DNA from: Parcubacteria group bacterium GW2011_GWC1_36_108
GTDB taxonomy: Bacteria; Patescibacteriota; Minisyncoccia; Moranbacterales; GWC2-37-73
Direction: 5' to 3'
Length of the DNA stretch: 64,000 nucleotides
Assembly: GCA_000991245.1 (NCBI GenBank)
Contig: LBRD01000005.1
Coordinates: 10,944-74,943 of the forward strand
Shown: piece after piece, positions 5,854-58,077 of the stretch
Layout: each line of letters starts with the position of its first letter
How positions within the stretch are numbered: the stretch's first letter is position 1
Position numbers and translations under genes: made by a program
The notes under the pieces: generated by a model
Told to the model about the DNA's origin: nothing
The model's database searches: none
What the model saw: the letters and a program-made list of their open reading frames with translations, nothing else

Positions 5854-8800
5854 TTAGCAAGTTGTTCCAGTTACGATTCCACCTTCGATTGTGATAGTAC
5901 AAGTATCAGTAGTCAGTGGACCTTTTACTACAGTAAGCGTACTGCTAACTCCACTGTTTCCATCAACCTTAAATACTCCAGTAGCTGAAACATCTTTAAC
6001 ATCTGAAAGATCATTTCCATTAGCATCAATGTCTGCTGCCATATTCAATGTGTCAGCAAGGTTAAGTCCTCCGCTTCCAGTAAAGTCAGTTCCACTGTTT
6101 CCAAGGTTAGTCAAAACATTATCATGCATATCAATGTCACCTCTCATATCAGAATCCCCTGTTATATCAAAACCTCCCGCAGTAACAGTGAACAGACCAC
6201 CAGAAGTTATTGCTCCACCGAATAATCCGCTAGTAGCAATATTCAAACTTCCGCTACCAACAAGATTCCCGCTAAGAGTAAGCGCTGAAAGATTTGTATC
6301 TCCGTTTGATTGAATTTGCCAATCACCGTCTGTAATTGAAACATTAGCATTAGAATTACCAATATGAACTTGCGCAGCGTCTGCCCCTGCTGTTCCAAGA
6401 TTTATTGTTGAATCTGGTCCAGCAGTGTTGTCAGAATTTGTAAGACCAGTAAGGAAATTTACACTGTCAGCATAAATTGTTGACCAACGTGAACCGCTTG
6501 TTCCAAGTGATCCACCAGTAATGTCACCCTCGACGTGCAAATTAGCCTTGCCAGTTCCTGTATTTCTAATAAAAACATCAGAATCAACAGCATTGTTTGC
6601 AATATCAATATTCATGCTGTTGCTTGTTGAAAAGATGTTTCCACCTGAAAGACCTGCTGTTCCATCGCTAAGTAAGAAAGCTAACACGCTGCCTGTTGTA
6701 TTTACATTTATAGCGCTGTTTAAGTCGCTACCCACTATTGTTCCGTCTATAATTTTTGCAGAATCAACACTATCACCAGAAAGTTTTGCGTTTGTTACTG
6801 CACCATCAACAATAGAATTTGTTGTTATTGAATTATCAACCACAGCAGCTGCAAGAGTTGCTGTGCTAGCATTTCCTGTGATGTTAGCAGCTATATCAGA
6901 TGAAAAAGTTTTAATTCCATCTATTGTTTGATCTCCAATTGTGTAGACACCATTAGTAACAGTTTCAGCATTTCCTGTGATATTAGCAACTATGTCAGAT
7001 GAAAAAGTTTTAATTCCATCGATTGTCTGATCTCCGATTGTGTAAACACCATTGGTAACAGTTGCTGCATTTCCTGTAATATTAGCAACAACATCCTGCG
7101 TGAATGTATTGATGCCAGTCAAAGTGTTATTAGCAGCAGCATAAACTCCATCAGTAACGGTTGCAGCATTTCCTGTAATGTTAGCAACTATATCAGATGA
7201 AAAAGTCTTAATTCCATCTATTGTTTGATCTCCGATTGTGTAAACACCATTGGTAACAGTTGCTGCATTTCCAGTAATATTAGCAACGACATCCTGTGTG
7301 AATGTGTTGATACCAGTCAAGGTATTATTAGCAGCAGTATAAACTCCATCAGTAACGGTTGCGGCATTTCCTGTTATATTAGCAATAACATTTGAAGTAA
7401 ATGTTTTAATTCCATCGATTGTCTGATCTCCGATTGTGTAAACACCATTAGTAACTGTTCCAGCATTTCCACTCACGTTGCCAGTTACATCACCAACAAG
7501 ATCTCCAGTAAATTGAACTGCAGTTATAGTTGTAGTTGAATCGATATTACTTCCGGTTATTGTGTCATTTGCGATTTTTACACCAGTTACCGCTCCGTCA
7601 GCAATCTTTGCAGTAGTTACACTTTGATCTGCAAGCTTCACAGGAGTAATAGCACTATCTGCGATTTTTCCAGAAGTAACAGCAGCATCAAGAATTTTTG
7701 AAGTGATAACAGAATCATCTGCTAATTTTGAAGTTGTTACTGCACCATCAAGAATTTTTGCAGTAATCACGCTACCATCAGCTAATTTAATATCAGTAAT
7801 TGCACCGTCCTGGACTTTTGCTGTTGAGATTGAACCGTCAGCTAAATTAACAGCCACGATTGTTCCATCGGCAATTTTTCCAGAAGTAACAGCACCGTCA
7901 ATTATTTTTGCAGTCGAAACAGAATTGTCAGCTAATTTTATCGTAGTAATTATTCCATCTGCAAGATCAGCTACTTGAACCGTTCCGTCAACAATCTTTG
8001 CGCTAGTCACACTATCGTCTGCTAGCTTTACTGTAGTGATTGCACCATCAGCAATTTTTTCTGTTGTTATTGTTGCATCCAGGATTTTAACTGCTGTTAC
8101 TGAATCATCTGCTAATATTGCAGTTGTCACAGCCAGGTCTTGAATTTTTGAAGTACTAACTGATCCATCTGCCAATTTGATATTTGTAATAGCGCTGTCT
8201 TCAATTTTTGCTGTTGAAATTGAACCGTCAGCTAAATTAACAGCCACGATTGTTCCATCGGCAATTTTTCCAGAAGTAATTGTTCCATCTAAAATTTTTG
8301 AATTAACCACGCTACCGTCAGCCAATTTGCTTGTAAGAATAGCACCATCAGCGATTTGATTGCTTCCAACTCCACCATCAGCAATCCCAACAGTTCCGAC
8401 ACCAATAGTTATTCCTGTTCCAGCGCCGACAGTTAAGGTTACATTTCCAAGTGTTCCACCACCAATCAATCCGTCTCCAGCAGTAACACCAGTTATTGTT
8501 CCACCACCAGCAATTGAGTTAACAGTCCAAGAACCATCGTTATTATTAACAACTGTAACATTGTCTCCAGCAACAATTGATTTAACCATACTTCCGTCTG
8601 AAGCAAGTTTATTTCCTGTTATTGTTCCATCAGCAATCTGCAGCCCAGTTATTGAACCGATAATTTTTGAAGCGTCTAAGCTTGTTATCCATGCAGGGTC
8701 ATTATATGAGCCAGTTGTGTAAACACCATCAGTAACGGTGTCAGCATTTCCTGTAAGTGTTCCAACAACGCTGCCAATAAGATTACCCACGAATGAACCA

Positions 8801-9654
8801 GCAGTAACTGTTCCAGTTGTTGTGACATCTCCGCTGCTTATAACGGTCACGCCATCAGTAAAAGAAGCTGCTGTAACAGCGCCTGTAGTGTTGATAGTAA
8901 TATCTGAAGCTAATTTTGAACCCGTGATTTCATTGTCGCCAATTTTAGCGGCAGTTACCACGCCGTCTGCCAATTTTGCAGTTACAATAGCTCCGTCAGC
9001 AATTTTTATTGTTGTCACAGCGCCATCAGCCAATTTTCCATTCGTTACTGCGCCATCAACGATCTTTGCGGTCACAATTGCATCATCTGCAATTTTAACT
9101 CCCGTAACAACTCCGTCAGCAATCTTTGCTGTTGTCACGCTGCCATCAGCCAATTTAACATCAGTTATTGCACCATCAACAATTTTTGCTGTAGTCACGC
9201 TATCATCAGCCAATTTTAAAGTCACAATTGCACCATCAGCAATTTTACCAGCAGTGATTGAGCCATTTGCCAAAGAAACGCCAGCAATTGCACCATTAGC
9301 CAATTTGGCAGAAGTGATTGCACCATTTTTGATGTCTCTTGCTTTAATCGAATCTCGCAAATTTAATTTTGAATATCGTATGCCAGCATTATTTGCAATA
9401 TCCTTATTTTTTAATCGACGTGAAATGTCTACTACATATTGAACACCATTTTTTTCAGCAACCTTTATCACGCTCAATATTTTTTCAGTTCTTGTTTTAG
9501 CATTAACACCATAAAAACCTGCTCCTAAAATAAAAACAACCATAACCAAAACAGTTACGATTTTAACTTTCTTTGCATTTTTCTTCAAAACGTCAGAAAC
9601 AACCCTTCCCTTTTCTAACACTTCCTGCCCAAAAGCTTTTTTACTCATACTCAT
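5854..9654 (-). CDS. giant repetitive cell-surface protein (N-terminal membrane anchor; dozens of ~9-10-aa [KL]ADG[AS]VT[TS]AKI beta-helix-like repeats plus 33/66-aa repeats)
   Basis: 1266 aa ORF; TM segment VTVLVMVVFILGAGFYGV; extreme Thr/Gly/Ala/Val/Ile repeat composition; DNA tandem repeats of 99 and 198 bp. Confidence 0.75.
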   Translation of the reverse strand: MSMSKKAFGQEVLEKGRVVSDVLKKNAKKVKIVTVLVMVVFILGAGFYGVNAKTRTEKILSVIKVAEKNGVQYVVDISRRLKNKDIANNAGIRYSKLNLRDSIKARDIKNGAITSAKLANGAIAGVSLANGSITAGKIADGAIVTLKLADDSVTTAKIVDGAITDVKLADGSVTTAKIADGVVTGVKIADDAIVTAKIVDGAVTNGKLADGAVTTIKIADGAIVTAKLADGVVTAAKIGDNEITGSKLASDITINTTGAVTAASFTDGVTVISSGDVTTTGTVTAGSFVGNLIGSVVGTLTGNADTVTDGVYTTGSYNDPAWITSLDASKIIGSITGLQIADGTITGNKLASDGSMVKSIVAGDNVTVVNNNDGSWTVNSIAGGGTITGVTAGDGLIGGGTLGNVTLTVGAGTGITIGVGTVGIADGGVGSNQIADGAILTSKLADGSVVNSKILDGTITSGKIADGTIVAVNLADGSISTAKIEDSAITNIKLADGSVSTSKIQDLAVTTAILADDSVTAVKILDATITTEKIADGAITTVKLADDSVTSAKIVDGTVQVADLADGIITTIKLADNSVSTAKIIDGAVTSGKIADGTIVAVNLADGSISTAKVQDGAITDIKLADGSVITAKILDGAVTTSKLADDSVITSKILDAAVTSGKIADSAITPVKLADQSVTTAKIADGAVTGVKIANDTITGSNIDSTTTITAVQFTGDLVGDVTGNVSGNAGTVTNGVYTIGDQTIDGIKTFTSNVIANITGNAATVTDGVYTAANNTLTGINTFTQDVVANITGNAATVTNGVYTIGDQTIDGIKTFSSDIVANITGNAATVTDGVYAAANNTLTGINTFTQDVVANITGNAATVTNGVYTIGDQTIDGIKTFSSDIVANITGNAETVTNGVYTIGDQTIDGIKTFSSDIAANITGNASTATLAAAVVDNSITTNSIVDGAVTNAKLSGDSVDSAKIIDGTIVGSDLNSAINVNTTGSVLAFLLSDGTAGLSGGNIFSTSNSMNIDIANNAVDSDVFIRNTGTGKANLHVEGDITGGSLGTSGSRWSTIYADSVNFLTGLTNSDNTAGPDSTINLGTAGADAAQVHIGNSNANVSITDGDWQIQSNGDTNLSALTLSGNLVGSGSLNIATSGLFGGAITSGGLFTVTAGGFDITGDSDMRGDIDMHDNVLTNLGNSGTDFTGSGGLNLADTLNMAADIDANGNDLSDVKDVSATGVFKVDGNSGVSSTLTVVKGPLTTDTCTITIEGGIVTGTTC
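6880..7480 (-). repeat. in-frame 99/198-bp coding tandem repeats inside the surface-protein gene
   Basis: gtgtaaacaccattggtaacagttgctgcatttcc recurs at 7040, 7238 and 7436 (198-bp period); protein unit NGVYTIGDQTIDGIKTF...ITGNAATVT. Confidence 0.6.
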
Positions 9655-11026: not shown

Positions 11027-12088
11027 CTACTCCAAAACTTCCTTTGAAACCGTCTCGATTTTAACGCTAAGCATTTTTGTTTTAAACAAGATAAACATAA
11101 TAAATTTAATAATCAAAAACCAAGCGACACTAATAATCGAACCTATTGGATATATCGTCAAGAAAAGCACTGCTGCCAGAATAATTGAAAAAATTGGACT
11201 TTTCTCACTCCCTGTAGCATCAGTATTAAAATAGCTATTAATCTTATTGCTAACAAGGCCTGAGAATATTTCTGATATTTTTTCATTTCCAACGATTGGA
11301 ATTCCTGCCAAATCAGCAAACTGCTTTCTGCCATTTTGAAGAACGAGTTCTTGATTTTTTTGTGACATTTGAGCTTCAGCACCCAAAAAGTTTTCAATGG
11401 CTTGTTTTTTTAATGCTTCTTTTTGTGCCAAGGTCAGATTCGCTGGAAGTTGTGCATCCAACAATTGTTCATTCTCGGGAGACAATTCGCCATTTTGCAC
11501 AAAATCTTTTTGGGACTGCAAAATAAACTGATCAACAGTAAGTTCTTGATCCTTGAGGACTTCAAATTGAGGATTAACTGAAGAAAGAAATGGGATAGCA
11601 ATTTTTTTGGTAACAAAACTGGCATCAAAATGTGGAACTTTCTTTTCCCCATCAAAATTATTCACTGTCAAAAAATATTGCATTGTTATCAAAAATGCAA
11701 TTGAAATCAAAAGGTATGATTTTCCGGCGCGCAAAGATTTCCAGATGCTTATTTTCAAATTGAAATCCATATCCTCCCTAATTCTCTTGGCAGCCAAAAT
11801 CAAAAAGAATCCGCTCAACAAAATCGCCACAAATTGAAGCCAGTCAAAGGCAAAAAAAAGACTCAGTGATAATGAACCAATTAAAACAAGTTTCAAAAGA
11901 AAATCATTCTGCGAAAGCACTGCACTTAAATAAATCAAAATAATATACACAGAAAAAAACGTCATCGGCACAGCCCAAGTGCTTGAAGCAGGAATCATTA
12001 CCGCGCTCTGCACAGACTGCCAAGCCAAAAAAGCAAACACCAACATCAGAAAATTTGGAACGTAGCTTAAAATTTTTCTTTTATTCAT
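11027..12088 (-). CDS. hypothetical multi-pass membrane protein
   Basis: 353 aa with several hydrophobic helices at both termini; no recognised domain. Confidence 0.55.
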   Translation of the reverse strand: MNKRKILSYVPNFLMLVFAFLAWQSVQSAVMIPASSTWAVPMTFFSVYIILIYLSAVLSQNDFLLKLVLIGSLSLSLFFAFDWLQFVAILLSGFFLILAAKRIREDMDFNLKISIWKSLRAGKSYLLISIAFLITMQYFLTVNNFDGEKKVPHFDASFVTKKIAIPFLSSVNPQFEVLKDQELTVDQFILQSQKDFVQNGELSPENEQLLDAQLPANLTLAQKEALKKQAIENFLGAEAQMSQKNQELVLQNGRKQFADLAGIPIVGNEKISEIFSGLVSNKINSYFNTDATGSEKSPIFSIILAAVLFLTIYPIGSIISVAWFLIIKFIMFILFKTKMLSVKIETVSKEVLE

Positions 12089-12127
12089 TTAACTTTAGAA
12101 TTAAATTTTGTTTTTTAGTGCAGAGAC

Positions 12128-12736
12128 TTAATTAGGGATTGCTGGAAGATTACCTGGCAGTCCAGCGCCTGCTGGCAAACTAACATTACTCAATGATTCA
12201 AAAGTTTTTTTCATAATTTCACATTGATCTTCAAACACAACATTTGAAGGAATGTTGAAATCCACATCGCCTGCAGGAACACAACTTGATTTTTCATCAC
12301 TATTTTCAATCTCCTCTTCAATATTTGGAACAGCATCGGTTATTAAATTTTGTTGTTGTTCGGGAAGATTTGTTTTCAAACTTTCCAAACAAGAAGTTGC
12401 CATTTTGAATCCTTTTGTTTCTCCTTCCACCCAAAAATATGTTGTTTCTCCGTCAAAAATAACATTTTCTTTTTTCTTTTCAACATCAGAAACTGCTTTA
12501 AATTTTTTCCCTTGGACATATGCCACTGAGACTTCCCCGTCTTTTGAAGTTGAAGTACATTTCATTTTCGAGCCCAAGCCAATTGCTTCCTTGATGGAAT
12601 TTACAACTCCACCATTTTCAGTCGGCGCGCTTTTTTCTGCTGGCTGCACAGGAGTTTGAGTTTCTTTTTGACTTCCACATCCTGAAAAAACAAGTGCCGA
12701 GCAAACAACCACCGCTGACAAAAATATTTTTTTCAT
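12128..12736 (-). CDS. hypothetical secreted lipoprotein
   Basis: Signal peptide plus lipobox (LVFSGCGSQ). Confidence 0.65.
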   Translation of the reverse strand: MKKIFLSAVVVCSALVFSGCGSQKETQTPVQPAEKSAPTENGGVVNSIKEAIGLGSKMKCTSTSKDGEVSVAYVQGKKFKAVSDVEKKKENVIFDGETTYFWVEGETKGFKMATSCLESLKTNLPEQQQNLITDAVPNIEEEIENSDEKSSCVPAGDVDFNIPSNVVFEDQCEIMKKTFESLSNVSLPAGAGLPGNLPAIPN

Positions 12737-12738
12737 TT

Positions 12739-12883
12739 ACCCAATTAAATAAGATTTGGGTCTAACTTTTTGGCAGAACCAACTTATTCTTGTTTAAAAT
12801 TTAATATTAATTAATATATCCATTCAATACACTCAAATCTTAGTTTTAAATTTTTAATAAAATTTAAAACTATTTAACAGGGT
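12739..12883 (-). repeat. E-element, long form (E1): ~145-bp palindromic MITE-like leader element with nested stems, ending 3 nt before the lipoprotein ATG
   Basis: Terminal arms cccaattaaata...tatttaacaggg; inner complementary pair aagatttggg/ctcaaatctt; homologous to 43839-43986. Confidence 0.6.
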
Positions 12884-16903: not shown

Positions 16904-17146
16904 ATTTTTATAACCCCACAAATCTACAAATCTTTTACGAATATACAAATTAAATTCGTTTTTAAAATATTTGCAAAATTATAGGTTAAATTAATTATTG
17001 CTTATTATTTTTTGTTATATGTTACATGTTATATGTTTTATGTTATACTTATATTAGAGCTTGATACATCGCTATCTGCTTCGCCCTACGGGATATTTAA
17101 CTTATGCCCGTATGGGCTTTTTTATTTATAAAGTTTTCTTCAACCA

Positions 17147-17195
17147 CTTTATAAACTTTATAACTTTATAACTTTATAACTTTTTACTCTACCAC
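17147..17195. repeat. tandem octamer repeat (CTTTATAA)x4-5 between grpE and dnaK
   Basis: actttataactttataactttataactttttac; the inverse-orientation tract (TTTATAAAG)n is at 18534-18572. Confidence 0.5.
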
Positions 17196-18533: not shown

Positions 18534-18572
18534 TAGTTTATAAAGTTATAAAGTTTATAAAGTTTTTAAAGC
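18534..18572. repeat. tandem repeat (TTTATAAAG)x4 in the hrcA promoter region
   Basis: gtttataaagttataaagtttataaagtttttaaag. Confidence 0.5.
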
Positions 18573-22814: not shown

Positions 22815-24245
22815 ATGTTAAGTCTATACAATACACTATCTAAAACCAAGCAGGAATTCAAGTCATTAAATCCCGGTAAAGTCGGGATGTATACTTGTGG
22901 ACCAACTGTATACAGTTATTTACACATTGGAAATATTCGAGCATATCTATTGTCAGACACCGTGCGAAGATATTTAGAATATATCGGATATGAAGTACGC
23001 CTGATTAAAAATATCACCGATGTTGGACATCTGACCGATGATGACGTTGCTCAAGGAGATTCAGGAGAAGACAAGATGGTTAAAGCTGCCGAGCGTGAGA
23101 AAAAAACTCCCGAAGAAATTGCCAGATTTTATGAAGAATATTTCAAACAAACCGAGAAGGAATTAAACATTATTCCTGCGCATTTTTTTCCACGCGCCAC
23201 TGCGCATGTTCCGCAAATGATTAAGATCATTGAAGGTCTCATTGAAAAAGGATACGCCTATGAAAAAAATGGTAACGTTTTTTTTGATGTCACAAAATTT
23301 GAGGATTACGGAAAACTTTCTGGCAACACCTTGGAAAATTTAAAAATAGGAGCAAGAATAGAAGAACATCCTGACAAAAAAAATGCTTGGGATTTTGCAC
23401 TTTGGATCAAAGCTCCAAAAGAGCATGCGATGAAATGGGAATCTCCTTGGTCAGTTGGATATCCTGGTTGGCATATTGAATGCTCCGCTATGAGCACAGA
23501 ATACCTTGGCAATACAATTGATATTCATACTGGCGGCGAAGATAACATTTTTCCTCATCAAGAAGCTGAAATTGCGCAAACAGAATGTTACACTGGTCAA
23601 AAATTTGTAAATTTTTGGGTTCATACTCGTCACCTACTAATAGATGGCAAAAAAATGAGCAAATCAAAAGGCAATTTGTTCACGCTTGAAGACATCAAAG
23701 AAAAAGGATTTTCTGCAATGGATCTGCGTTTACTGTTTCTCTCTTCTCATTATCGCAGTCAAACAAATTTCTCCTGGGAAGCTCTTGAGCAAGCACATAA
23801 AAATATTCAGAGAATTAATGATTTTGTATTAAATATTGAAGCAATCGCCTCAAGGGATTTAGTCTCACCAAAAACAATCGACACAAAAGCTGTTGTAGAA
23901 AAATTTGAAGCTGCGATGGATGATGATCTCAACACCCCCCTAGCATTAAGTATTTTTTATGGATTTATTTCTGATTGCAACAAACTTCTTGCAATAAACC
24001 ACATAGACAGCAAAAGTGCGCATAGCATTTTAACACTTTGGAAAAAAATAAATTCTGTTTTTGGATTTATACTTTCCGGTCAAGCAGAGATTCCAGAAGA
24101 AATTAAACTCTTAGTCAAGCAGCGCGAAGAGGCTAGAAACGGAAAAGATTTCAAAAAATCGGACGACCTTCGCGCCCTCATCGAAAAACATGGTTTTATT
24201 TTGGAAGATACTAAGGATGGGCAAAAAATTAGACTAGCTAGCTAG
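22815..24245 (+). CDS. cysS: cysteine--tRNA ligase
   Basis: HIGH (LHIGNIRAY), KMSKS, CGPT and zinc-binding motifs. Confidence 0.93.
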   Translation: MLSLYNTLSKTKQEFKSLNPGKVGMYTCGPTVYSYLHIGNIRAYLLSDTVRRYLEYIGYEVRLIKNITDVGHLTDDDVAQGDSGEDKMVKAAEREKKTPEEIARFYEEYFKQTEKELNIIPAHFFPRATAHVPQMIKIIEGLIEKGYAYEKNGNVFFDVTKFEDYGKLSGNTLENLKIGARIEEHPDKKNAWDFALWIKAPKEHAMKWESPWSVGYPGWHIECSAMSTEYLGNTIDIHTGGEDNIFPHQEAEIAQTECYTGQKFVNFWVHTRHLLIDGKKMSKSKGNLFTLEDIKEKGFSAMDLRLLFLSSHYRSQTNFSWEALEQAHKNIQRINDFVLNIEAIASRDLVSPKTIDTKAVVEKFEAAMDDDLNTPLALSIFYGFISDCNKLLAINHIDSKSAHSILTLWKKINSVFGFILSGQAEIPEEIKLLVKQREEARNGKDFKKSDDLRALIEKHGFILEDTKDGQKIRLAS

Positions 24246-24310
24246 GTACTAGGTTTTAGGTTCTAGGTTTTAGATATTGGGTTCTAGGTTCTGGGTTTTA
24301 GGTGTTAGGA
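24245..24310. repeat. 7-bp tandem repeat tract (TAGGTTN)x~9
   Basis: ctaggttttaggttctaggttttagatattgggttctaggttctgggttttaggtgttagga. Confidence 0.6.
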
Positions 24311-26250: not shown

Positions 26251-26384
26251 ATCCGAAATACGAAGCACGAAACTCGAAACAATATCAAAACTCTAATAAC
26301 AAAAATTCGAAACATTTTGAAAATTTGAATTTATTATTTAAAATTGATTTAAAATTTATAATTTAAAATTTAAAATTAAACCTC

Positions 26385-30625: not shown

Positions 30626-30662
30626 GGTAGGTGTTAGGTTTTAGTTTTTAGGTTCTAGGCTC
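30626..30662. repeat. 7-bp tandem repeat tract (TAGGNNN)x5 ending 3 nt before the alaS ATG
   Basis: taggtgttaggttttagtttttaggttctaggctctg; mRNA-sense reads ...cctaacacctacccatATG. Confidence 0.55.
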
Positions 30663-31193: not shown

Positions 31194-31276
31194 TTTAGGA
31201 GTTAGTAATTAGAAATTAGGAATTAGGCAATAAAAATCCTGCATTTTACTACAACCTAATTCCTACAACCTACAAG
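31194..31276. repeat. TTAGNAA/CCTAANN 7-bp repeats forming an inverted repeat ending 3 nt before the ATG at 31190
   Basis: ttagtaattagaaattaggaattaggc ... acaacctaattcctacaacctac. Confidence 0.5.
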
Positions 31277-34232: not shown

Positions 34233-34320
34233 AAAATAAGCTTATCCTGTTTAGCTATTTTATTCAAGAGACAAAAAACAATCCCAATTAAATGGGACTG
34301 TTTTTGAGTTTCTGTTTTTT

Positions 34321-36417
34321 CTATTTGCTCGCATCAATCATCCTGCGAACTTCATCTAGATTTACTTGTGGACGCGTGCGCTGGGGTTTAAATTTTTTGG
34401 GAGCAATGTGCTGCATTTGCGAAAGTGACATTGGACGATCTTTTGAAACATAGGCTTTGTGTTCAACTTTTTTTTCAGCTGGCTGCGTCACTTTTTGCAC
34501 TGGCTTATTTTCTTGCACTGTTTTAATTGGTTGCCTTGTTGGTTGCTCAATTGGCGCAGCAAGATCAGCATTTTCTTCTTGCTGTCTTTGCATTTTTCTT
34601 TCTTGATTAAGTTTTTCCTTGGCAGTCATCCGTTGATATTCTTTGAGACAATCTTTGCAAAAGGTCGGCCTTTTTCCATCTGGCTGAAAAGGAATTTGAA
34701 TGTTGTCTCCACACATATCACAAATTGCATCAAATTTTGGCCTGTCATCAACTGGTTTGACGTAATAGTCAGGATTTTCCTCCTCTTGTTGCTGAATTTG
34801 GCTTGCTTGAGGCTGCGGTTGATTATATTCTCCAAGATCATCTTGATTTATAGGTGCTTTTTCAGTTGTTACCTGCGTCTGGATCACTTTTTGAGGTTGC
34901 GAAGCACCAAGGGGCTCTGGGATGCTTACAGAGGCCTGCGGCTCATTTTTTTGCTCAGCTGCGACTGGTTGCTGAATTTGAGGTTTTTGCACGGTTTGCT
35001 CAATTCTAGGGGCAAAGTTTTGATGAGCACTTTGTGCAGTCTGAGGCTGCGGAGCTTTGTATTGAACATTGTTTGGATTTTGAATAATTTGACCTGTTGG
35101 AGGCTTGTTGACCGTTTGAAAACCAGCAGCAGGCATAACACCAGCCCAACGAGAAATTTTATCTTCAACTTCTTCTTTACTAGAAGCATAACGCTCACGT
35201 GAGTTGGCAATGATCTTTTCTTCATTTTCGGCAGTATCTTCAATGTACACAGGCGGCAACACTTGAGCAGAAAAAGCATCCCCCGCAATTCCGTCAATCA
35301 TCAATTTCAGATAAATGTTATATTTTGGCAAATTCACAATATCATTTTGCACAAACACGGGCATAAATTCTTTTTCCAAAAATTCAGCATCCATCGCACC
35401 AACACGAAAAGAAATGATTGTGCCAGCATTTCCAAAAATAGCATCACGAACTTTTTCATCAATCTGAGTTATATATTGATTTGCCAAAATCAAATTGAGA
35501 CGATATTTTCGAGCCTCAGACAAAATATTAGCAAAAGATTCTGTTGCGAAGTTTTGAAACTCATCAACATACAAATAAAAATCCTTGCGCTGATCTTCTG
35601 GAATGTCCACGCGTCCCATTGCCGCCAGCTGAATCTTGGTAATCATCATAGCTCCCAAAAGCGCACCATTGTCCTCTCCAATTCGTCCTTTTGAAAGATT
35701 TATGATTAAAATCTTTCGAGTATCCATCGCATCGCGAATATCAAAAGAAGATTGAGTTTGACCAACAATATTTCTAATCAATGAGCTGGACAAAAATTGT
35801 CCAACCTTATTTTGAATCGGAGAAACAACTTCTTGCAAAACTTTATCACTCCATTTTGGAAATTCATCAACCCAGAATTGCCTGATCACAGGATCAGTAA
35901 CTTTCTCCACCACACGCTCGCGATATTTTTTGTCCACCAAAATTCTCGTCACTCCAAGCAAGGTGCTCCCAGGATATTCCAACAAAGCCAAGATTGCATT
36001 ACGCAAAATATATTCCAATCGAGGTCCCCAAGAATCAGCCCAAATCTTTTTGAAAACGCCAATGAGTCCCGATGCTACCAAATGTCTATAATCAGGATCA
36101 ACCGATTCCATCACATTAAAAGCCAGCGGATAATTTTGATCAGCCGGATTGAGGTATATAACATCATTAATACGATTTGCAGGAACCGCTTTCAAAAGTT
36201 TTTCAGCAGTGTCTCCGTGAGGATCGATATAGCAAATTCCGTGACCATTACGAATATCTTGCACCACCAAATTCTCCAGCAGGTTTGTTTTACCCATACC
36301 GGTTTTTCCGATGATATACATATGTCGAGTTCGGTCATCAGTTTTTATTCCGAAAACTCTCTCTTGATTTCTAAAGTTCGTTTTTGCAAAAAATGCAATT
36401 TCGTTGTTATTTGCCAT
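34321..36417 (-). CDS. TraD/TraG/VirD4-like (T4SS coupling-protein-like, AAA_10) P-loop ATPase with a Q/P-rich linker and C-terminal zinc ribbon
   Basis: Walker A IIGKTGMGKT; Walker B YLYVDEFQNF; C-terminal CDMCGDN...CKDC. Confidence 0.7.
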   Translation of the reverse strand: MANNNEIAFFAKTNFRNQERVFGIKTDDRTRHMYIIGKTGMGKTNLLENLVVQDIRNGHGICYIDPHGDTAEKLLKAVPANRINDVIYLNPADQNYPLAFNVMESVDPDYRHLVASGLIGVFKKIWADSWGPRLEYILRNAILALLEYPGSTLLGVTRILVDKKYRERVVEKVTDPVIRQFWVDEFPKWSDKVLQEVVSPIQNKVGQFLSSSLIRNIVGQTQSSFDIRDAMDTRKILIINLSKGRIGEDNGALLGAMMITKIQLAAMGRVDIPEDQRKDFYLYVDEFQNFATESFANILSEARKYRLNLILANQYITQIDEKVRDAIFGNAGTIISFRVGAMDAEFLEKEFMPVFVQNDIVNLPKYNIYLKLMIDGIAGDAFSAQVLPPVYIEDTAENEEKIIANSRERYASSKEEVEDKISRWAGVMPAAGFQTVNKPPTGQIIQNPNNVQYKAPQPQTAQSAHQNFAPRIEQTVQKPQIQQPVAAEQKNEPQASVSIPEPLGASQPQKVIQTQVTTEKAPINQDDLGEYNQPQPQASQIQQQEEENPDYYVKPVDDRPKFDAICDMCGDNIQIPFQPDGKRPTFCKDCLKEYQRMTAKEKLNQERKMQRQQEENADLAAPIEQPTRQPIKTVQENKPVQKVTQPAEKKVEHKAYVSKDRPMSLSQMQHIAPKKFKPQRTRPQVNLDEVRRMIDASK

Positions 36418-37829: not shown

Positions 37830-37905
37830 TATGTTGCGAATATGCCAATGACACGAATTTTTGCATTATTTGCATATTCGCGTATTTGCATGAATTTGCA
37901 TAATT
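37830..37905 (-). promoter_or_regulatory. array of ATGCAAAT direct repeats plus ATTCGCGTATT motif upstream of the 36505-37785 gene
   Basis: mRNA-sense: atgcaaattcatgcaaatacgcgaatatgcaaataatgcaaaaattcg. Confidence 0.4.
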
Positions 37906-41513: not shown

Positions 41514-41520
41514 AAAAATA

Positions 41521-41600
41521 GCTTCTCAGCCTTTAGCTTCTTAGCTTCTTAGAAAATTCAGGACACCTGAAAAGCTAAAAAGCTAACGCCTAAAAAGCTG
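41521..41600 (-). repeat. F-element copy F3 in the pheT leader
   Basis: mRNA-sense: cagctttttaggcgttagctttttagctttt-caggtgtcctga-attttctaagaagctaagaagctaaaggctgagaagctattttt-ATG. Confidence 0.5.
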
Positions 41601-43838: not shown

Positions 43839-43986
43839 ACCCTGTTAAATAAGATTTGGGCTTTTTAAAAAAGAAAACCCACCTATTAAAGTTAATTTTT
43901 TAATTTTATTCACAACATTATTTAATTCAAGAACCCAAATCTTAATTTTAAATTTTTTAAGGAAATTTAAAATTATTTAACAGGGT
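43839..43986 (-). repeat. E-element, long form (E2), ending 3 nt before the tyrS ATG
   Basis: Perfect 12-bp TIR ccctgttaaata...tatttaacaggg; inner stem aagatttggg/cccaaatctt; ~125-bp AT-rich interior. Confidence 0.6.
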
Positions 43987-46310: not shown

Positions 46311-46423
46311 GAGATAAAATTTTTATAATTTTTTAATTTTGTAATTTTTAAATAATGTTTTAATTTCTTAATTTTTAAAAATTATAAAATTTGTATTTAT
46401 TTATAAAATTAAAAATTAAAAAT

Positions 46424-48097
46424 TTAATCCAATATATCAGATTTTTTTACTCCTACCATCCACATTCTATTATGGATCCAGTCACTAATGATAACTTTAA
46501 GCATTGTTCTGGTAATTATCACAGCAGTAAACATTGAAACCACAACTCCAATAAAAAGTGCGGCTGCAAAACCTTTCACAAAACCCGTACCCATAAGATA
46601 CAAAATTCCAGCGGTCAGCAAGGATGAAATGTTGCCGTCGCGAATTGATGTCCAAGCACGTTTGAATCCTTCTTCAAGTGAATTCGCAATCGTTCTTCCA
46701 CCACGTATTTCTTCTTTGGTTCTTTCAAAAATCAAAATATTAGCATCGACCGCCATACCAATTGAAAGCACGAATCCTGCAATACCGGAAAGTGTCAGGG
46801 TAATTCCTGTCATTTTGAAAATAGTTATCATCACTGCAGTATAAATAAGCAAAGCTAATGATGCGACAAGTCCTAGGAAGCGATAGAAGATAAGCATAAA
46901 AACAACAACTGCTCCGAGGCCTATTGCTCCAGCAATCAAAATACTTCTAAGCGAATCTGCTCCAAGAGTTGCTTCAACGCTTTGTTGACCAACCAATGTC
47001 AAAGGAACTGGCAGCGCACCTTGATTTAATCTGTCAGAAATATCCTTGGCTTCTTTGAATGTGTAATTTCCTGTAATCACCGCTTGCCCGTTTGTGATTT
47101 CAACTTGAACGGTTGGTGCTATCTGCAATTGTCCATCCAAGAAAATTGCGATTTCTTTTCCTAGATTTTTTTTGGTTAGTTCTGCGAAAAGCTTTGTGCC
47201 TTCTTCGTCAAATTGAAGAGAAACTTCCGGTTCTCCAAGACCTTGCCCGTTTGAATATTGCGCTGTTGCACTTTTTAAGTTTTTTCCGGTAAGCGCCGTT
47301 GTTTGATATTTGAACTGTTCATATTGAGAAGGATCTTTTTTTGCAAAAAGAATGTGCGCACCATGAACTTCCAAATTTTCTCCTTCCCCACGAGATTCAA
47401 TAAATTTAATAATGTGCCAACCATATTGAGATTCCACCAAATCAGGATAAATTTCTCCTGATTTCAAATTGCTTTCGAATAGAATCTTATCAAATTCTGG
47501 CACAAAAGCACCTTTTTTCACGAAATCCAAATCTCCGCCCTTATCCTTGGAGCCGGGATCTTCACTATTATCCTTGGCAAGCTGAGCAAAATCTCCACCA
47601 TTTTTGACTTCATCGAAAATTTTCTGTGCTTTTTCTTTTGCCTGCGTGTTCATCTGATCAAACATTTGTTGAACTTGCGGATCGACAGGACCTTCTTCTT
47701 TAAATTCCAATAACGGAGCGTCTTTAATTTTAGCCTTAGCTTCTTCAATATCTTTAATACCGGGAAGTTCAACAATGATACGATTTTCTCCACTGCTCTT
47801 GGCAATTTGCACCAATGGCTCCCCCACACCAAAAGCATTCACGCGTCTTTCAATGACAGTCTGCGCGCCCTCCATTGCTTCTGCCACTTTTGATGGATCA
47901 ATATTCGAAACATCCGCTTTATATTCCAAATGAAATCCTCCTTGCAAATCAAGTCCCAATTTCAATTTAAACTTATTCAGTGCGTCATAAAGTGGCGTTA
48001 TTTTTGAAACTGCCTGTGGATATGCAACAAGACCAGCAACCACTGCCAAAACGATTACCCCAGCAAATTTCAATTGTAATTTTTTCTTTATATTCAT
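46424..48097 (-). CDS. secD: protein translocase subunit SecD carrying an embedded parvulin-type PPIase domain in the periplasmic P1 region
   Basis: LGLDLQGG and RRVNAFGVGEPLVQ (P1 base); then NGGDFAQLAKDNSEDPGSKDKGGDLDFVKKGAFVPEFDKILF...SQYGWHIIKF (matching PpiC [27 protein letters not shown]...TQFGYHIIKV); then the P1 base resumes (EPEVSLQFDEEGTKLFAELTKKNLGKEIAIFLDG) and six TM helices. Confidence 0.88.
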   Translation of the reverse strand: MNIKKKLQLKFAGVIVLAVVAGLVAYPQAVSKITPLYDALNKFKLKLGLDLQGGFHLEYKADVSNIDPSKVAEAMEGAQTVIERRVNAFGVGEPLVQIAKSSGENRIIVELPGIKDIEEAKAKIKDAPLLEFKEEGPVDPQVQQMFDQMNTQAKEKAQKIFDEVKNGGDFAQLAKDNSEDPGSKDKGGDLDFVKKGAFVPEFDKILFESNLKSGEIYPDLVESQYGWHIIKFIESRGEGENLEVHGAHILFAKKDPSQYEQFKYQTTALTGKNLKSATAQYSNGQGLGEPEVSLQFDEEGTKLFAELTKKNLGKEIAIFLDGQLQIAPTVQVEITNGQAVITGNYTFKEAKDISDRLNQGALPVPLTLVGQQSVEATLGADSLRSILIAGAIGLGAVVVFMLIFYRFLGLVASLALLIYTAVMITIFKMTGITLTLSGIAGFVLSIGMAVDANILIFERTKEEIRGGRTIANSLEEGFKRAWTSIRDGNISSLLTAGILYLMGTGFVKGFAAALFIGVVVSMFTAVIITRTMLKVIISDWIHNRMWMVGVKKSDILD

Positions 48098-49255: not shown

Positions 49256-51904
49256 TTATTTTCCACAACAGTTTTTGTATTTTTTGCCGCTTCCACATAA
49301 ACATAGGTCATTTCTGCCGATATTATCCTTTTTGACAAATGGCTTCTGCGCTGCAGCAGCTTCATTGTTGCCAACTTGTTCTTTTGCAGTCTCATTGCTA
49401 AATTGAGCAGGACTATCCTCGGCTCCGTGAAATTGAATATTTTTGGGTGCAGCTTCTTTTTGGACTGAAGGCTCAGCTGAAACCATTGAGACCTTGAAAA
49501 TTGTTCGCACGGTTGTCGAACGCATATTTTCCATCAAATGAGAAAACATATGAAAAGCTTCTCTTTTGTATTCAATAAGAGGGTCGCGTTGTCCATATCC
49601 ACGAAGTCCAATTCCTTGACGCAAATAATCAATTTCATCAAGATGATTCATCCAAAGCGTGTCTATGGTTTGCAAAATAATTGCCTTTTCAATTTGTCTT
49701 AAAGTTTGCGCACCAATCTCTGTTTCCTTTTGGATATATACTTCCTTGGCTTTTCCCATGACATATTCCATCATCAAGGAAATTTTTTCCACAGTGTTTT
49801 TAGATTTGTCATCCCTAATTTGTTCAAGTTTTTTACTGTCATTTTCAGAAAAGGGAAAAATGTTTTGCAATTCGTTTGTGATAGTTTTAATATCCCAAGC
49901 ATATTCTTCTCCGGTGCAGTGCACCGAAATATTACGTTCAACCTCCTCTTCAACATATTGCATAATTTCAGCTTTCACATCATCCGAGGCTAAAATTTCT
50001 TTACGTTTTTTATATACAACTTCACGCTGTTTATTCATCACATCGTCATAATCTAAAACATGTTTTCGAATATCAAAATTGTAACCCTCAATTTTAGATT
50101 GAGCACTTTCAATGGTGCGAGAAATAATAGCATTTTGAATCGGCTGATCTTCTGGCAATCCAAGAGTGTCCATCATACTTTTAAGCCTATCCCCTCCAAA
50201 TCTTCGCATCAACTCATCTTCCAATGACACATAGAATTGTGATGCTCCCGGATCTCCTTGACGACCAGCTCGTCCTCGAAGTTGATTATCGATGCGGCGT
50301 GCTTCATGTCTTTCTGTACCGATAATATAAAGTCCTCCAACTTCTTTAACTCCTTCTCCAAGTTTAATATCAGTTCCACGACCAGCCATGTTTGTTGCAA
50401 TAGTCACCGCGCCAAGTTGTCCAGCGCCTGCAATAATAGCTGCTTCTCTTTCGTGATGTTTAGCATTTAAAACTTCATGCTTTATTCCTTCACGTTCAAG
50501 CAGCGCACTAAGATATTCCGATTTTTCAATAGCAATAGTTCCAACCAAAAATGGCTGACCTTTTTTATGATTTTCTTTGATAAGTTGAGCAATCGCATCA
50601 AATTTTCCCTTTTCAGTTTTATAAACGACATCAGGCAAATCTTTTCTAATCAAAGTTTTGTTTGTTGGAATTTCCATCACATCAATTTTGTAAACTTTTG
50701 CAAATTCTTCAGCACTGGTTGATGCTGTTCCTGTCATTCCGGCCAGCTTTTTATACATTCTGAAATAATTTTGAAAAGTGATTGTCGCCAAGGTGCGAGA
50801 TTCTTTTTGAACTTCAACGCCTTCTTTCGCTTCAATTGCTTGATGAAGACCATCGCTATAACGACGTCCCTCCATAAGTCGTCCTGTAAAATCATCAACA
50901 ATAATAACCTGTCCGTCTTTTACGACATATTCCTTATCAAGTTTAAACAAAACTTCAGCGCGCAGTGATTGCTCCAAATGATGAACGTAATTTATTTTTC
51001 CAAGTTCATAAATGTTGCCAACTCCAAGATCTTTTTCAACTTTTGCAATTCCATTTTCCGTCAGCGTCACGGCTTTCATTTTTTCATCCACTTCATAATC
51101 TTCTTTTTCCCTAAGACGTGGAACAAGTTGAGCAAAGCGTTGATATAATTTTGTTGATTCGCTGTCTGGAGCTGAAATAATAAGCGGGGTGCGAGCCTCA
51201 TCAATCAAAATTGAATCGACTTCATCAACAATAGCGTAATTAAGTTCTCTTTGTGACATTTGCTCCAAACTTTGCACCATATTGTCACGAAGATAATCAA
51301 AACCAAATTCATTGTTTGTTCCATAGGTAATATCACAGGCATAAGCCTCACGCCTGGTTATTTCAATCAAATTTTCCATCTCCACGCTCACTTCGTCGCC
51401 ATCAAAAACTTGCGGTTCATACAAATATGAAACGTCATGCATAATGCACGCAGTTGAAAGTCCAAGAGCGTTATAAATCGAACCCATCCAATTGCAATCG
51501 CGCTTAGCCAGATAATCATTCACTGTCACGACGTGCACACCTTTTCCTTCAATAGCATTAAGATAAATTGGCAAAGTTGATGTTAAAGTTTTTCCTTCGC
51601 CAGTTTTCATTTCCGTTATCGTTCCTTTGTGAAGAGCAATCCCGCCAATCATCTGCACGTCAAAATGTCTCGTTCCGTTTACACGCTTGGCAACTTCTCG
51701 CACCACCGCAAAAGCCTCTGGCAAAATTTCATCGAGGGTTTCTCCTTTGGAAACTCTCTCTTTAAATTCCTTGGCTTTTCCTTTCAAATCTTCATCAGAA
51801 AGAGCAATCATTTTTTCTTCAAAGGAATTGATTTTTGTTACGATCGGTTTAAGTTTATTTATCTCCCGTTCATTTGAACCGAATATTTTGCTGAATAATG
51901 TCAT
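49256..51904 (-). CDS. secA: preprotein translocase ATPase SecA
   Basis: 882 aa; DEAD-like motor; C-terminal zinc-binding CLCGSGKKYKNCCG. Confidence 0.96.
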   Translation of the reverse strand: MTLFSKIFGSNEREINKLKPIVTKINSFEEKMIALSDEDLKGKAKEFKERVSKGETLDEILPEAFAVVREVAKRVNGTRHFDVQMIGGIALHKGTITEMKTGEGKTLTSTLPIYLNAIEGKGVHVVTVNDYLAKRDCNWMGSIYNALGLSTACIMHDVSYLYEPQVFDGDEVSVEMENLIEITRREAYACDITYGTNNEFGFDYLRDNMVQSLEQMSQRELNYAIVDEVDSILIDEARTPLIISAPDSESTKLYQRFAQLVPRLREKEDYEVDEKMKAVTLTENGIAKVEKDLGVGNIYELGKINYVHHLEQSLRAEVLFKLDKEYVVKDGQVIIVDDFTGRLMEGRRYSDGLHQAIEAKEGVEVQKESRTLATITFQNYFRMYKKLAGMTGTASTSAEEFAKVYKIDVMEIPTNKTLIRKDLPDVVYKTEKGKFDAIAQLIKENHKKGQPFLVGTIAIEKSEYLSALLEREGIKHEVLNAKHHEREAAIIAGAGQLGAVTIATNMAGRGTDIKLGEGVKEVGGLYIIGTERHEARRIDNQLRGRAGRQGDPGASQFYVSLEDELMRRFGGDRLKSMMDTLGLPEDQPIQNAIISRTIESAQSKIEGYNFDIRKHVLDYDDVMNKQREVVYKKRKEILASDDVKAEIMQYVEEEVERNISVHCTGEEYAWDIKTITNELQNIFPFSENDSKKLEQIRDDKSKNTVEKISLMMEYVMGKAKEVYIQKETEIGAQTLRQIEKAIILQTIDTLWMNHLDEIDYLRQGIGLRGYGQRDPLIEYKREAFHMFSHLMENMRSTTVRTIFKVSMVSAEPSVQKEAAPKNIQFHGAEDSPAQFSNETAKEQVGNNEAAAAQKPFVKKDNIGRNDLCLCGSGKKYKNCCGK

Positions 51905-51924
51905 AAAAATTAGTTTAAAAGTTT

Positions 51925-51970
51925 ACCCCGTGAAATTGCTTCGCACCAGCAAAGCTGGATTTCACTGGGT
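51925..51970 (-). repeat. E-element, short form (E5), 21 nt upstream of the secA ATG
   Basis: ccccgtgaaat-tgcttcgcaccagcaaagctgg-atttcactggg. Relative to E3/E4, the arm change T:A to G:C is compensatory. Confidence 0.5.
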
Positions 51971-52124
51971 AAATAAAGTTATAAAGTTCATAAGGCAAAT
52001 TGAACACAAACCAAAACCCTATTTTATAGGGCTAACATTTTATACGTCTTTAGTGTTTGTTTCTTTGCTTATTCTATATCAAAAAACCCCTCCCGTAAAG
52101 GAAGGGTCTGGTTTGTAAAATTTG

Positions 52125-52643
52125 CTAAAATGATTGCAGCACGATTGATCCATCGGGGGCGACGTCGGTGCAGGTTCCGCGTAGGAATGCTTTTTTTCCA
52201 ATAGTAAGCATTGTTTTGATTTTATCAGCAATTTGACTGTCTGATTTCACAATCACACGCACGGGATATGCGGCGTCATTGTCCAAATTACCTTTGGCAT
52301 ATGTGCCCCCGGTTGGAATGCCCTCTATGATTTGCACACTCCAAAACAAATTTGTGTTGGGTGTCATTGTTTTGTTTTTGCATTGTTCCCATTGCGATCT
52401 AATAAGTTTTTTTCTTTCTTCAGAAGTTTCTTGCACAGCTGGAGCTTTCTTTGGCTCAACAGTTTTGCTTTGACTTGGATTTGCAACTGTAGGGTTTAAA
52501 GATTTTACCTCAGCGCTTGCTTGAATCGTTTTGGGAGCAACAGCAACAGGGGCAGGTTTTTTCTTAGCAAAAAGAAGAAATGCTCCAGAAACAACTCCCA
52601 AAAAAATAACAAAACCTAGGACGATTTTTATTTTTGTATCCAT
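52125..52643 (-). CDS. hypothetical secreted/membrane-anchored protein
   Basis: 172 aa; N-terminal TM or signal segment; Pro/Ala/Val-rich linker. Confidence 0.55.
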   Translation of the reverse strand: MDTKIKIVLGFVIFLGVVSGAFLLFAKKKPAPVAVAPKTIQASAEVKSLNPTVANPSQSKTVEPKKAPAVQETSEERKKLIRSQWEQCKNKTMTPNTNLFWSVQIIEGIPTGGTYAKGNLDNDAAYPVRVIVKSDSQIADKIKTMLTIGKKAFLRGTCTDVAPDGSIVLQSF

Positions 52644-52651
52644 TTTTCTTG

Positions 52652-52690
52652 CCCCGTTAAATTGCGGTAATCCGCACTATTTAACTGGGG
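52652..52690 (-). repeat. E-element, short form (E3), hairpin ending 8 nt before the ATG
   Basis: gccccgttaaattgCggtaatccGcactatttaactgggg. Confidence 0.6.
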
Positions 52691-52720
52691 TTGCTTTTTA
52701 AAAAATTACTATTTTTTAAT

Positions 52721-52770
52721 GATTACATTATACCACAAAAAACAAAAGAAAGCTTTTCGACTTTCTTTTG
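52721..52770 (-). promoter_or_regulatory. hairpin plus extended -10 promoter (TGTGGTATAAT) for the E3-leader transcript
   Basis: Minus strand: caaaagaaagtcgaaaagctttcttttgttttttGTGGTATAATg. Confidence 0.45.
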
Positions 52771-52946
52771 TTTAATACAAAGTTAATTGAATCTGTTTTA
52801 TATCATTCCCGTGAAAACGGGAATCCAGGGCTAGGCATAACTCTGGATCCCCAGTCAAGCTGAGGATGACAAGATGCCATTATAATTAAGTTAACCAAAC
52901 AAGGAATATTGCTTAATACTCTTACAATTGCGTAAGTTTTTATAAC

Positions 52947-58038: not shown

Positions 58039-58077
58039 CCCCGTTAAATTGTGGTAATCCACACTATTTAACTGGGG
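58039..58077 (-). repeat. E-element, short form (E4), ending 8 nt before the ATG
   Basis: gccccgttaaattgTggtaatccAcactatttaactgggg. It differs from E3 only by the paired C to T and G to A substitutions (plus A/T in the spacer). Confidence 0.6.

Follow-up and report, generated by a model that had tools for sequence, protein, structure and literature searches.

The 64,000-nucleotide (nt) stretch analysed here in full (the window; coordinates are positions in it) belongs to an 88-kb scaffold from the Rifle aquifer metagenomes, with a GC content of 37%; its proteins have their named relatives among Parcubacteria and Moranbacteria. It carries five palindromic hairpins, all on the minus strand and each ending 3-21 nt before an ATG, called here E3, E4, E5, the tyrS copy and the lipoprotein copy. 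We propose, at a probability of roughly 0.7, that these hairpins are copies of one family of small, non-autonomous palindromic DNA elements that is mobile or was so until recently, in the manner of repetitive extragenic palindromes (REP), Rickettsia palindromic elements (RPE) and miniature transposable elements with inverted repeats (MITEs). Copies appear and disappear at fixed sites between close strains with no visible target duplication; they are found in leaders rich in A/T, inside the loops of further copies and within genes, whose frame they keep, and the stem stays paired throughout. The family is apparently undescribed so far: no published description of the hairpin was found in the literature, where a search with the arm sequence gave only primer coincidences, and Rfam 15 has no gathering-level match in the whole window and, at E-values up to 10 over 51880-52760, only unrelated weak ones. 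What is unusual about the element is its conservation of sequence across phyla, its tiny size and its start-proximal placement in the candidate phyla radiation (CPR).

The stem and its interior

The five copies have a common stem, CCC(C)-A-GUKAAAU / AUUUMAC-GGG(G), around a variable interior. E3 (52652-52690, minus strand) is a short copy of layout CCCC-A-GUUAAAU / AG-UGCGG-AUUA-CCGCA / AUUUAAC-GGGG; its GGGG stops 8 nt short of the ATG at 52643, where the gene for a 172-aa membrane or secreted protein starts, and its tail CAAGAAAA (52644-52651) runs up to that ATG. E4 (58039-58077, minus strand), also short and also 8 nt before its ATG (58030), differs from E3 solely by one compensatory pair (UGUGG/CCACA in E4), and its tail CAAGAAAU directly adjoins the start codon of a LigB/Memo-like gene. 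The two read CCCCAGUUAAAU-AG-UG(C/U)GG-AUUA-CC(G/A)CA-AUUUAACGGGG, then CAAGAAA(A/U), then AUG. The third short copy, E5 (51925-51970, minus strand), has the arms GUGAAAU/AUUUCAC, ends 21 nt before the secA ATG at 51904 and is embedded in an octamer-repeat leader of that gene; its interior, read by comparison with the copies in L037, L045 and L064 (L numbers denote loci collected from other genomes), consists of two inner hairpins, CCAGC-UUU-GCUGG and UGC-GAA-GCA. The remaining two copies are long (about 145 nt) and end, with GGG, 3 nt before their ATG. In the tyrS copy (43840-43985, minus strand; ATG at 43836) the closing stem is a perfect 12 bp, CCCUGUUAAAUA/UAUUUAACAGGG, and encloses a hairpin, AUUUUAAAUUU...AAAUUUAAAAU, as well as another stem, UAAGAUUUGGG...CCCAAAUCUUA, whose interior is about 70 nt long; this arm type with two inner hairpins is found in L005 too. 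The lipoprotein copy (12740-12882, minus strand; ATG at 12736) is built in the same way, with two mismatches in its 3' arm (UAUUUAAUUGGG); the two long copies have a mean column identity of 84%, and the 12-bp closing stem and both inner stems are common to them.

The predicted RNA folds have energies of -19.8 (E3), -18.3 (E4), -27.1 (E5), -36.3 (tyrS copy) and -32.6 kcal/mol (lipoprotein copy). Downstream lie tyrS, secA, the LigB/Memo-like gene (Pfam LigB/Memo) and two genes without a Pfam match, namely a lipoprotein with an LVFSGC lipobox and the 172-aa protein, which has an N-terminal hydrophobic segment. A covariance model of the closing stem only (R1), built from 93 copies of which three are window copies, was run over the 64 kb with filters off and recovers the three short copies (E3, 51.6 bits, E = 1.9e-10; E4, 50.9 bits; E5, 40.2 bits) and nothing else above noise. 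Single arms with two mismatches are not enriched over shuffles in the window (17 against 14.4, and 25 against 23.8), so the signal there is the paired arrangement of the arms. At 34283-34296 an arm-like mini-palindrome with a T-run, cccatttaattggg, forms a terminator-like stem after the gene at 34321-36417; it may be a remnant or a chance resemblance.

The pairing was examined in other genomes with the exact-arm pattern CCCAGTKAAAT-N10-40-ATTTMACGGGG, run on the GTDB species-representative collection. This pattern lets K and M vary independently, yet in 130 distinct copies the K:M position holds G-C 59 times, U-A 58 times and C-G twice, with a mismatch in 11. Two further positions were free in the pattern: the base 5' of CCCAG is C in 116 of the 130 copies (about 90%) and pairs with the fourth G, and the 3' arm is followed by YARR (UAAA, CAAG, CAGG or UGAA). 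Copies outside the selection by pattern have further compensatory pairs (GUC/GAC, AAU/AUU, GAAC/GUUC, GGAAU/AUUCC); those found by the model and not by the pattern include GUCAAAU/AUUUGAC arms in L053 and L048, the double change AAUUAAAU/AUUUAAUU in L098, GUUGAAC/GUUCAAC in L073, GUGGAAU/AUUCCAC in L010 and GAAAC/GUUUC in L012. The interior hairpins covary as well (E3 against E4, L045 against L064, L048 against L092). The stem thus behaves, in its substitutions, as a real helix under selection for pairing, and the five window hairpins form one element family. The paired substitutions that the original prediction had quoted (ugCgg/ccGca in E3 against ugUgg/ccAca in E4, and guGaaau/auuuCac in E5) are correct, and its claim of selection on a secondary structure holds well beyond the window, as does the covariance that it had proposed to look for in copies found by a model.

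The arms might instead be read as the half-sites, GTKAAAT and ATTTMAC, of a palindromic operator for a DNA-binding regulator, and an inverted repeat close to promoters and start codons would suit such a site. However, the spacing of the half-sites ranges from about 10 to about 125 nt, copies lie inside genes, and complementary variants occur together in one genome (GUU/AAC with GUG/CAC in the window, GUU/AAC with GUC/GAC in L053); it is therefore the pairing that is conserved, and not the contact with a sequence-specific dimer, which leaves the operator disfavoured and highly improbable. A parS site was considered and rejected: it resembles the arms, but its half-site order is inside-out.

Taken over all copies, the element is a closing stem of 11-12 bp with the conserved sequence CCCC-A-GUKAAAU / AUUUMAC-GGGG, an extra-helical A (paired in a CCCUG...CAGGG variant) and a short, A-rich 3' tail that starts with YARR. 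Its interior varies freely and can be a loop, one hairpin, two hairpins or more nested copies; the size is 32-60 nt, or up to about 146 nt with a nested interior. Folding is slightly better on the complementary strand than on the sense strand (69 against 34 copies; G-U pairs 67 against 33; p = 1e-4). This asymmetry is due largely to an A/C juxtaposition that is conserved at the closing stem's top, and for that reason it leaves undecided which strand is active and whether it acts as DNA or RNA.

Empty sites, nested copies and copies in genes

Relatives of secA showed that the element is patchy but were too distant for a comparison of empty with filled sites, so the gene of the 172-aa protein next to secA was used instead to obtain syntenic relatives. 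E3 is absent from the same leader in L202 and L203 (92% identity of the downstream protein), L204 (73%) and L205 (57%). In these relatives the -10 box stands 37-38 nt from the ATG, and in the window the same interval is made of 36 nt, which align with the L205 leader up to the ATG, plus the 39-nt hairpin and its 8-nt tail. E5 is missing in L202, L204, L208 and L214, and its site in L204 is an uninterrupted octamer-repeat array. L202 and L203 have E4, but none was detected in L204 or L205, and the tyrS copy is kept in L202 and L203 only, with its substitutions confined to loops and interior. The same polymorphism is seen at strain level: among ten contigs from the same aquifer that encode an identical 172-aa protein, eight have both E3 and E5, one has E3 without E5 (L208) and one has neither (L214). 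The element is flanked by syntenic housekeeping genes, which are found without it as well. The presence of the hairpins at orthologous leaders of related genomes, which a conserved cis-regulatory leader of the kind in the original prediction would call for, is thus not borne out for E3 and E5, and no copy of the element occurs in 1.07 Mb around 80 secA homologues.

Nesting gives a second view of the inserted unit. Desulfobacterota have stacks of copies, with the loop of one broken by the next; in L030 and L038 the outer copy is interrupted by an inner one at ...AAAUACG[CCCCAG..GGGGUAAA]CUUCGCUG, and the uninterrupted form of the outer copy is found in L010, from which it follows that the insert is the stem plus the YARR tail, without target duplication. 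No matching flanking repeats were found in the 93 aligned copies, CAA standing on both sides only in E3 and E4; a target-site duplication by way of these CAA flanks was rejected as confined to the two copies and not general.

Copies also lie within coding sequences. The TPI of L037 carries HPVKSDKVGSPRAKFNGV in frame exactly at the alignment gap of the Thermotoga TPI (PDB 1b9b), and the UvrA of L083 carries PSEIKNAIFHGA in frame within an extra segment. Two orthologous RmlD-like genes, in L045 and L064, contain YPVKSSSAGRPKAEFNGV and TPVKSAKGGVEQFNGV in frame; their arms are identical, and the inner hairpin, CCAGC/GCUGG in L045 and CCGCC/GGCGG in L064, is intact in both. In-frame copies occur in L025 and L104 as well. 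All six copies internal to open reading frames (ORFs) that were examined leave the frame open, a count to be read with the bias of the detection method, which favours open frames.

Another possibility is that the element moves, or is removed, at the level of RNA: it could insert into exposed single-stranded RNA and be copied back to DNA, or behave like an intron that a host RNA-processing enzyme takes out. The sites that it prefers, namely the A-rich stretch ahead of the AUG and the loops inside further copies, would be unstructured in RNA, and copies in the CPR lie in sense orientation, as such a mechanism would have it. Yet no reverse transcriptase was found among 150 neighbouring ORFs and no ribozyme motif by Rfam, the arms form neither a bulge-helix-bulge nor any known ribozyme core, and it is the complementary strand that folds slightly better; an open frame would moreover be needless in a copy that is excised, with the same caution about detection. 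We consider such an RNA-level process very unlikely.

Some further observations concern the leaders themselves. The secA leader (window 51905-52124, compared with L202 10520-10814, L208 and L214) exists in two unrelated forms, one with AACTTTAT repeats and E5, the other of 296 nt with AATTGAAA repeats and other small palindromes, and the two occur in strains whose neighbouring genes are identical or 92% identical; the E3 leader has two haplotypes, one of which is also that of L205, a distant relative. Recombination and turnover seem to be much faster in leaders than in coding sequence. Another small palindrome, GTCATTCCCG-N-CGGGAATGAC (such as attcccgttttcacgggaatgac), is repeated between genes of the window genome (45390-45399, minus strand; 52802-52811, plus strand) and of a close relative (L202, upstream of 10001 and 10815). 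Tandem direct repeats of 7-9 nt, such as ACTTTATA x4.6, CTAGGTT x8.9 and TAGCTTCT x4.4, fill intergenic leaders of the window and often reach the start codon (17013-17047, 17146-17183, 18535-18571, 24242-24309, 26328-26377, 30628-30659, 31195-31227, 37860-37905, 41519-41552 and 46318-46427; also in L061, L094, L023 and L022), and heptamer arrays of the same kind flank hairpins in Desulfobacterales loci. Within a coding region, the ORF at 5854-9654 (1266 aa) has tandem repeats at 6861-7471 and 8969-9326, with periods of 99/198/297 and 30/60/120 nt, typical of a repetitive surface protein.

Spread across phyla and placement before start codons

The exact-arm pattern matched at least 116 stretches in the GTDB species representatives, where about 8 would be expected by chance (by arithmetic under uniform base composition). 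Among the matches listed are numerous Desulfobacterota, together with Bacteroidota, Cloacimonadota, Omnitrophota, Elusimicrobia, Nitrospinaceae, Syntrophales and gammaproteobacterial metagenome-assembled genomes (MAGs), two isolates (Sunxiuqinia rutila and a Rhizobiales strain) and, from the CPR, Moran-, Taylor-, Kaiser- and Yonath-bacteria, Paceibacterota, Saccharibacteria and Peribacteria; no Rickettsiales are among them. One MAG labelled Candidatus Woesearchaeota archaeon (L084) has an exact-arm copy and, besides, a short form of the long-type interior (CCCTGTGAGATAGTTTTAAATCTCAAATCTTATTTCACGGGG); their occurrence in a contig binned as a DPANN archaeon is either a case of cross-domain spread or a binning error. 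Density reaches five copies in 8 kb in L067, against five in the 64 kb of the window. Carriage by phages was rejected, with only three exact-pattern matches in 2.9 million viral contigs.

The genes next to the copies have little in common. The 150 neighbouring ORFs match 160 different Pfam families, none of them in more than three ORFs and none enriched; the interior AGUGCGGAKUACCGCA of E3 and E4 recurs before unrelated genes in L004, L053 and L095; and relative to the downstream gene 62 copies are on the same strand and 44 on the opposite one, only a weak bias. Gene neighbourhoods also speak to an integron attC-like site, or another site of site-specific recombination, that would mark gene cassettes. 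In attC sites, the R'' box (RYYYAAC) is at the 5' end and the R' box (GTTRRRY) at the 3' end of the folded site. The arms fit the letters of these consensus boxes, and an extra-helical base, a variable terminal structure and a hairpin just before an ORF start are all attC-like. The box order is inverted, however, with GTTAAAT...ATTTAAC on both strands here against AAC...GTT in attC, and on this we reject the idea; besides, the flanking genes are syntenic and housekeeping, present also where the element is not, and a Phage_integrase domain was found in only 2 of the 150 neighbouring ORFs.

That five minus-strand elements precede ATGs was the starting point of the original prediction and is confirmed by the sequence: random intergenic placement and orientation gives an end 3-21 nt before a start with p = 0.048, and hence p = 2.5e-7 for five copies, or 1.1e-4 when just three count as independent. 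Identity between E3 and E4 starts 3 nt before the stem and extends through the ATG, which indicates that the inserted unit ends exactly at the start codon. Most genes of the window have no GGAGG and a few have a strong one. The earlier view that these core genes have no Shine-Dalgarno sequence thus stands as far as GGAGG is concerned, but in E3 and E4 the GGGG of the 3' arm lies at Shine-Dalgarno distance, 8 nt from the AUG. Upstream of the tyrS copy (44050-44022), of the lipoprotein copy (the best one, TTGTCA-16-TATAAT, 11/12, at 12939-12912) and of E3 (TGGTATAAT) there are promoter-like sites, so that these hairpins should be part of the mRNA, and the whole lipoprotein copy would lie in the 5' untranslated region (UTR).

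A similar arrangement is found in other CPR genomes, where distances were counted between the last G and the first start codon belonging to an ORF of 60 aa or more. Eleven sense-strand copies cluster 8-12 nt before the start and no antisense copy lies at that distance; nine more form a second distance class, at 39-44 nt (the 39-45 nt class), in which a further hairpin is paired with the region of the AUG. The element takes up the entire intercistronic gap in L004 and L050, the stop codon lying 1 nt before it and the next ATG 9 nt after it, and in L097 it stands between a GGAGG and the ATG. The genes behind CPR copies are unrelated housekeeping genes (dnaG, dnaK, mutM, rnc, nusA, ackA, rlmH, yebC, a pilin gene and rplJ), and the same gene recurs across CPR lineages for dnaK (L053 and L109), mutM (L048 and L092) and rplJ (L001 and L057). 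Either insertion is targeted to the start-proximal position, or only copies there survive or are useful.

Two features of these leaders deserve separate mention. The second hairpin, about 40 nt after the element, covaries and occurs in several Parcubacteria lineages (L026, L031, L042, L048, L052, L092, L109, L116), for example as UGAUGAUUUUU...AAAAAUCAAUCAUG, with a 3' strand that includes or abuts the AUG and a loop of the type UCGCUnnGCUC; it too precedes unrelated genes (yebC, mutM, rlmH, dnaK, rnc, nusA). Upstream of rplJ (L10), at L001 1597-1630 and L057 6412-6446, the element lies inside a larger stem, CCGCAGACA..GG / CC..UCGAGG, which may be a lineage-specific L10 leader; the Rfam L10 leader model has no match, and nothing relevant appears in L057 6300-6520.

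The placement is what a dedicated cis-acting leader RNA would predict, one that controls the access of ribosomes by offering a standby site, by mimicking the Shine-Dalgarno helix, or as a sequestered GGGG pseudo-Shine-Dalgarno, a thermosensor or a protein-binding site. Its case is made by the sense orientation of all five window copies 3-21 nt from the ATG, by the sense-specific clusters at the two distances elsewhere, by the recurrence before dnaK, mutM and rplJ with structure-preserving changes, by a GGGG at Shine-Dalgarno distance in genomes mostly without GGAGG, and by upstream promoter-like sites that imply transcription of the whole hairpin. What we find hard to reconcile with it is that E3 and E5 are dispensable, missing in strains with an identical downstream protein and in the closest relatives; that pairing is kept also where the element lies in a coding sequence or within the loop of another copy; that orientation is near random outside the CPR; and that the downstream genes have no common function, with no copy before the 80 secA homologues. 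For a thermometer or riboswitch in particular, E3 and E4 offer a GGGG 8 nt from the AUG, no GGAGG, and functionally unrelated downstream genes. In-frame and nested copies, an orientation of 62:44 and the loss of E3 and E5 in relatives thus speak against the original prediction that the hairpins are regulatory leaders dedicated to core genes, and we regard this as unlikely. Copies at random positions and orientations across genomes, which that prediction had held to be incompatible with it, are largely what is seen outside the window genome; the CPR copies, on the other hand, cluster on the sense strand close to start codons.

We return to a mobile palindromic element. Its propagation would need a folded single strand, of DNA or RNA, and a trans-acting enzyme, a requirement that would account for the cross-phylum conservation of pairing as well as of arm sequence. 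Sitting in sense orientation in transcribed leaders, the window copies would give mRNAs that carry a stable hairpin, with its foot 3-21 nt away from the AUG. The A-rich tail that the element brings along would restore an unstructured stretch directly before the AUG, and the compact hairpin would add little effective length; we suggest that insertion before the AUG is tolerated because compact helix and A-rich tail leave the upstream stretch unstructured. An effect of the element on ribosome access in the CPR is plausible from its position; any effect on translation or mRNA stability would be secondary, and a 5' stabiliser, a platform-docking helix or a GGGG pseudo-Shine-Dalgarno are possible forms of it.

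Several points weigh against a mobile element. First, mobility is deduced from the pattern of presence and absence, and no mobilising enzyme, autonomous copy or insertion intermediate was found in the collected loci and the 150 neighbouring ORFs; an autonomous or parent insertion sequence (IS) was sought as an arm pair 0.4-4 kb apart enclosing an ORF, and none occurs in the collected loci. Second, leader alleles vary outside the element too, the segment from the -10 box to the ATG of L214 differing from that of the window, so that part of the presence and absence could reflect recombination between leader haplotypes and not transposition. Third, repeats of the REP or MITE type do not usually have a 22-nt stem that is conserved from phylum to phylum. 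Fourth, the stereotyped position in the CPR (11 sense copies at 8-12 nt, the class at 39-44 nt with its second hairpin) and the recurrence before the same genes are not predicted by a purely selfish element, and point to targeting or to a retained function. One could combine both sides and imagine a cross-phylum hairpin, moved by an undescribed mechanism, that homes to or is kept 5' of CPR starts as a portable module for initiation or mRNA stability. Its helix might, in cis, occupy the platform of the 30S subunit in place of the duplex of Shine-Dalgarno and anti-Shine-Dalgarno, and a universally conserved ribosomal target would explain the identity of the 22-nt stem across phyla; we hold this, too, to be doubtful.

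If the hairpins are indeed mobile elements, a widespread repeat family has been overlooked that remodels 5' leaders and even protein sequences in many phyla. Small CPR genomes would not be free of active repeats, and their leaders would turn over under identical coding sequences. The copies would provide a test case for initiation in genomes poor in Shine-Dalgarno sequences, where a stable helix 3-12 nt from the AUG is tolerated or perhaps used. There are practical consequences as well: in-frame inserts of 12-18 residues could mislead gene callers, and searches for structured RNAs could be misled, given that covariation here does not imply a regulatory RNA. Finally, the conserved stem, the extra-helical base and the YARR tail would define the substrate of an enzyme still to be found.

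Likeness to known repeats and leaders

Hairpins of 5' UTRs, such as the ompA and aprE stabilisers, the ROSE and fourU thermometers and standby sites, have in common with the element a stable stem-loop just upstream of the AUG and a G-rich 3' strand at Shine-Dalgarno distance. Unlike it, they are gene-specific, are not conserved in sequence across phyla, are not mobile and do not lie inside coding regions. The small dispersed repeats of cyanobacteria, which are very small, nest within each other, as copies of the element do. TAACTGA heptamer repeats were described in Beggiatoaceae, cyanobacteria and Bacteroidetes, in 5' leaders next to start codons, across phyla and with no evident mechanism (PMC4679880). 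They resemble the element in leader placement by start codons and in cross-phylum spread, and the tandem arrays of the window resemble them in turn; they are, however, direct repeats without structure, and their sequence differs from that of the hairpin.

Bacterial MITEs (Correia/NEMIS, ERIC, RUP/BOX) come nearer: they are non-autonomous inverted repeats near gene starts that are co-transcribed, fold in the mRNA and can change the expression of the genes they precede. They differ in having IS-derived terminal inverted repeats and target-site duplications, neither of which was found here, and the element is far smaller. RPEs are selfish palindromic repeats tolerated in frame in conserved genes as well as between genes, for which no mobilising mechanism is known; in contrast to the element, with its 32-60 nt and its many phyla, they are 100-150 bp long, restricted to Rickettsia and unrelated in sequence.

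The closest likeness in anatomy appears to be that with REP elements and the ends of IS200/IS605. This comparison has its limits: (i), the GTAG motif of REP and REPIN repeats is not present and the 5' flank is not conserved; (ii), REP sequences are species-specific whereas the arms here are identical across phyla; (iii), copies here lie also in frame in genes and at a fixed distance from starts; (iv), no gene for a REP-associated tyrosine transposase (RAYT) or TnpA is linked to the copies (150 neighbouring ORFs, Pfam). L206 does contain, at 11640-12270, a gene for an IS200-like Y1 transposase, flanked by hairpins of its own, CCACCAGCGTTAGCTGGTG / CCACTAGCGTTTAGCTAGTGG, and a tblastn search with this Y1_Tnp found no other Y1 gene in 1.9 Mb of collected loci; as a mobiliser it was rejected, its hairpins being unrelated and its locus without a copy of the element. 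The resemblance itself extends over several features. REP and REPIN repeats, which depend on RAYT, and IS200/IS605 ends are, like the element, short imperfect palindromes (about 35-60 nt) that have an extra-helical base and, next to the hairpin's foot, a conserved tetranucleotide, here YARR on the 3' side (YYUR on the 5' side of the other strand), and REP and REPIN repeats, again like the element, cause no target duplication and occur in many dispersed extragenic or intercistronic copies, tandem and clustered.

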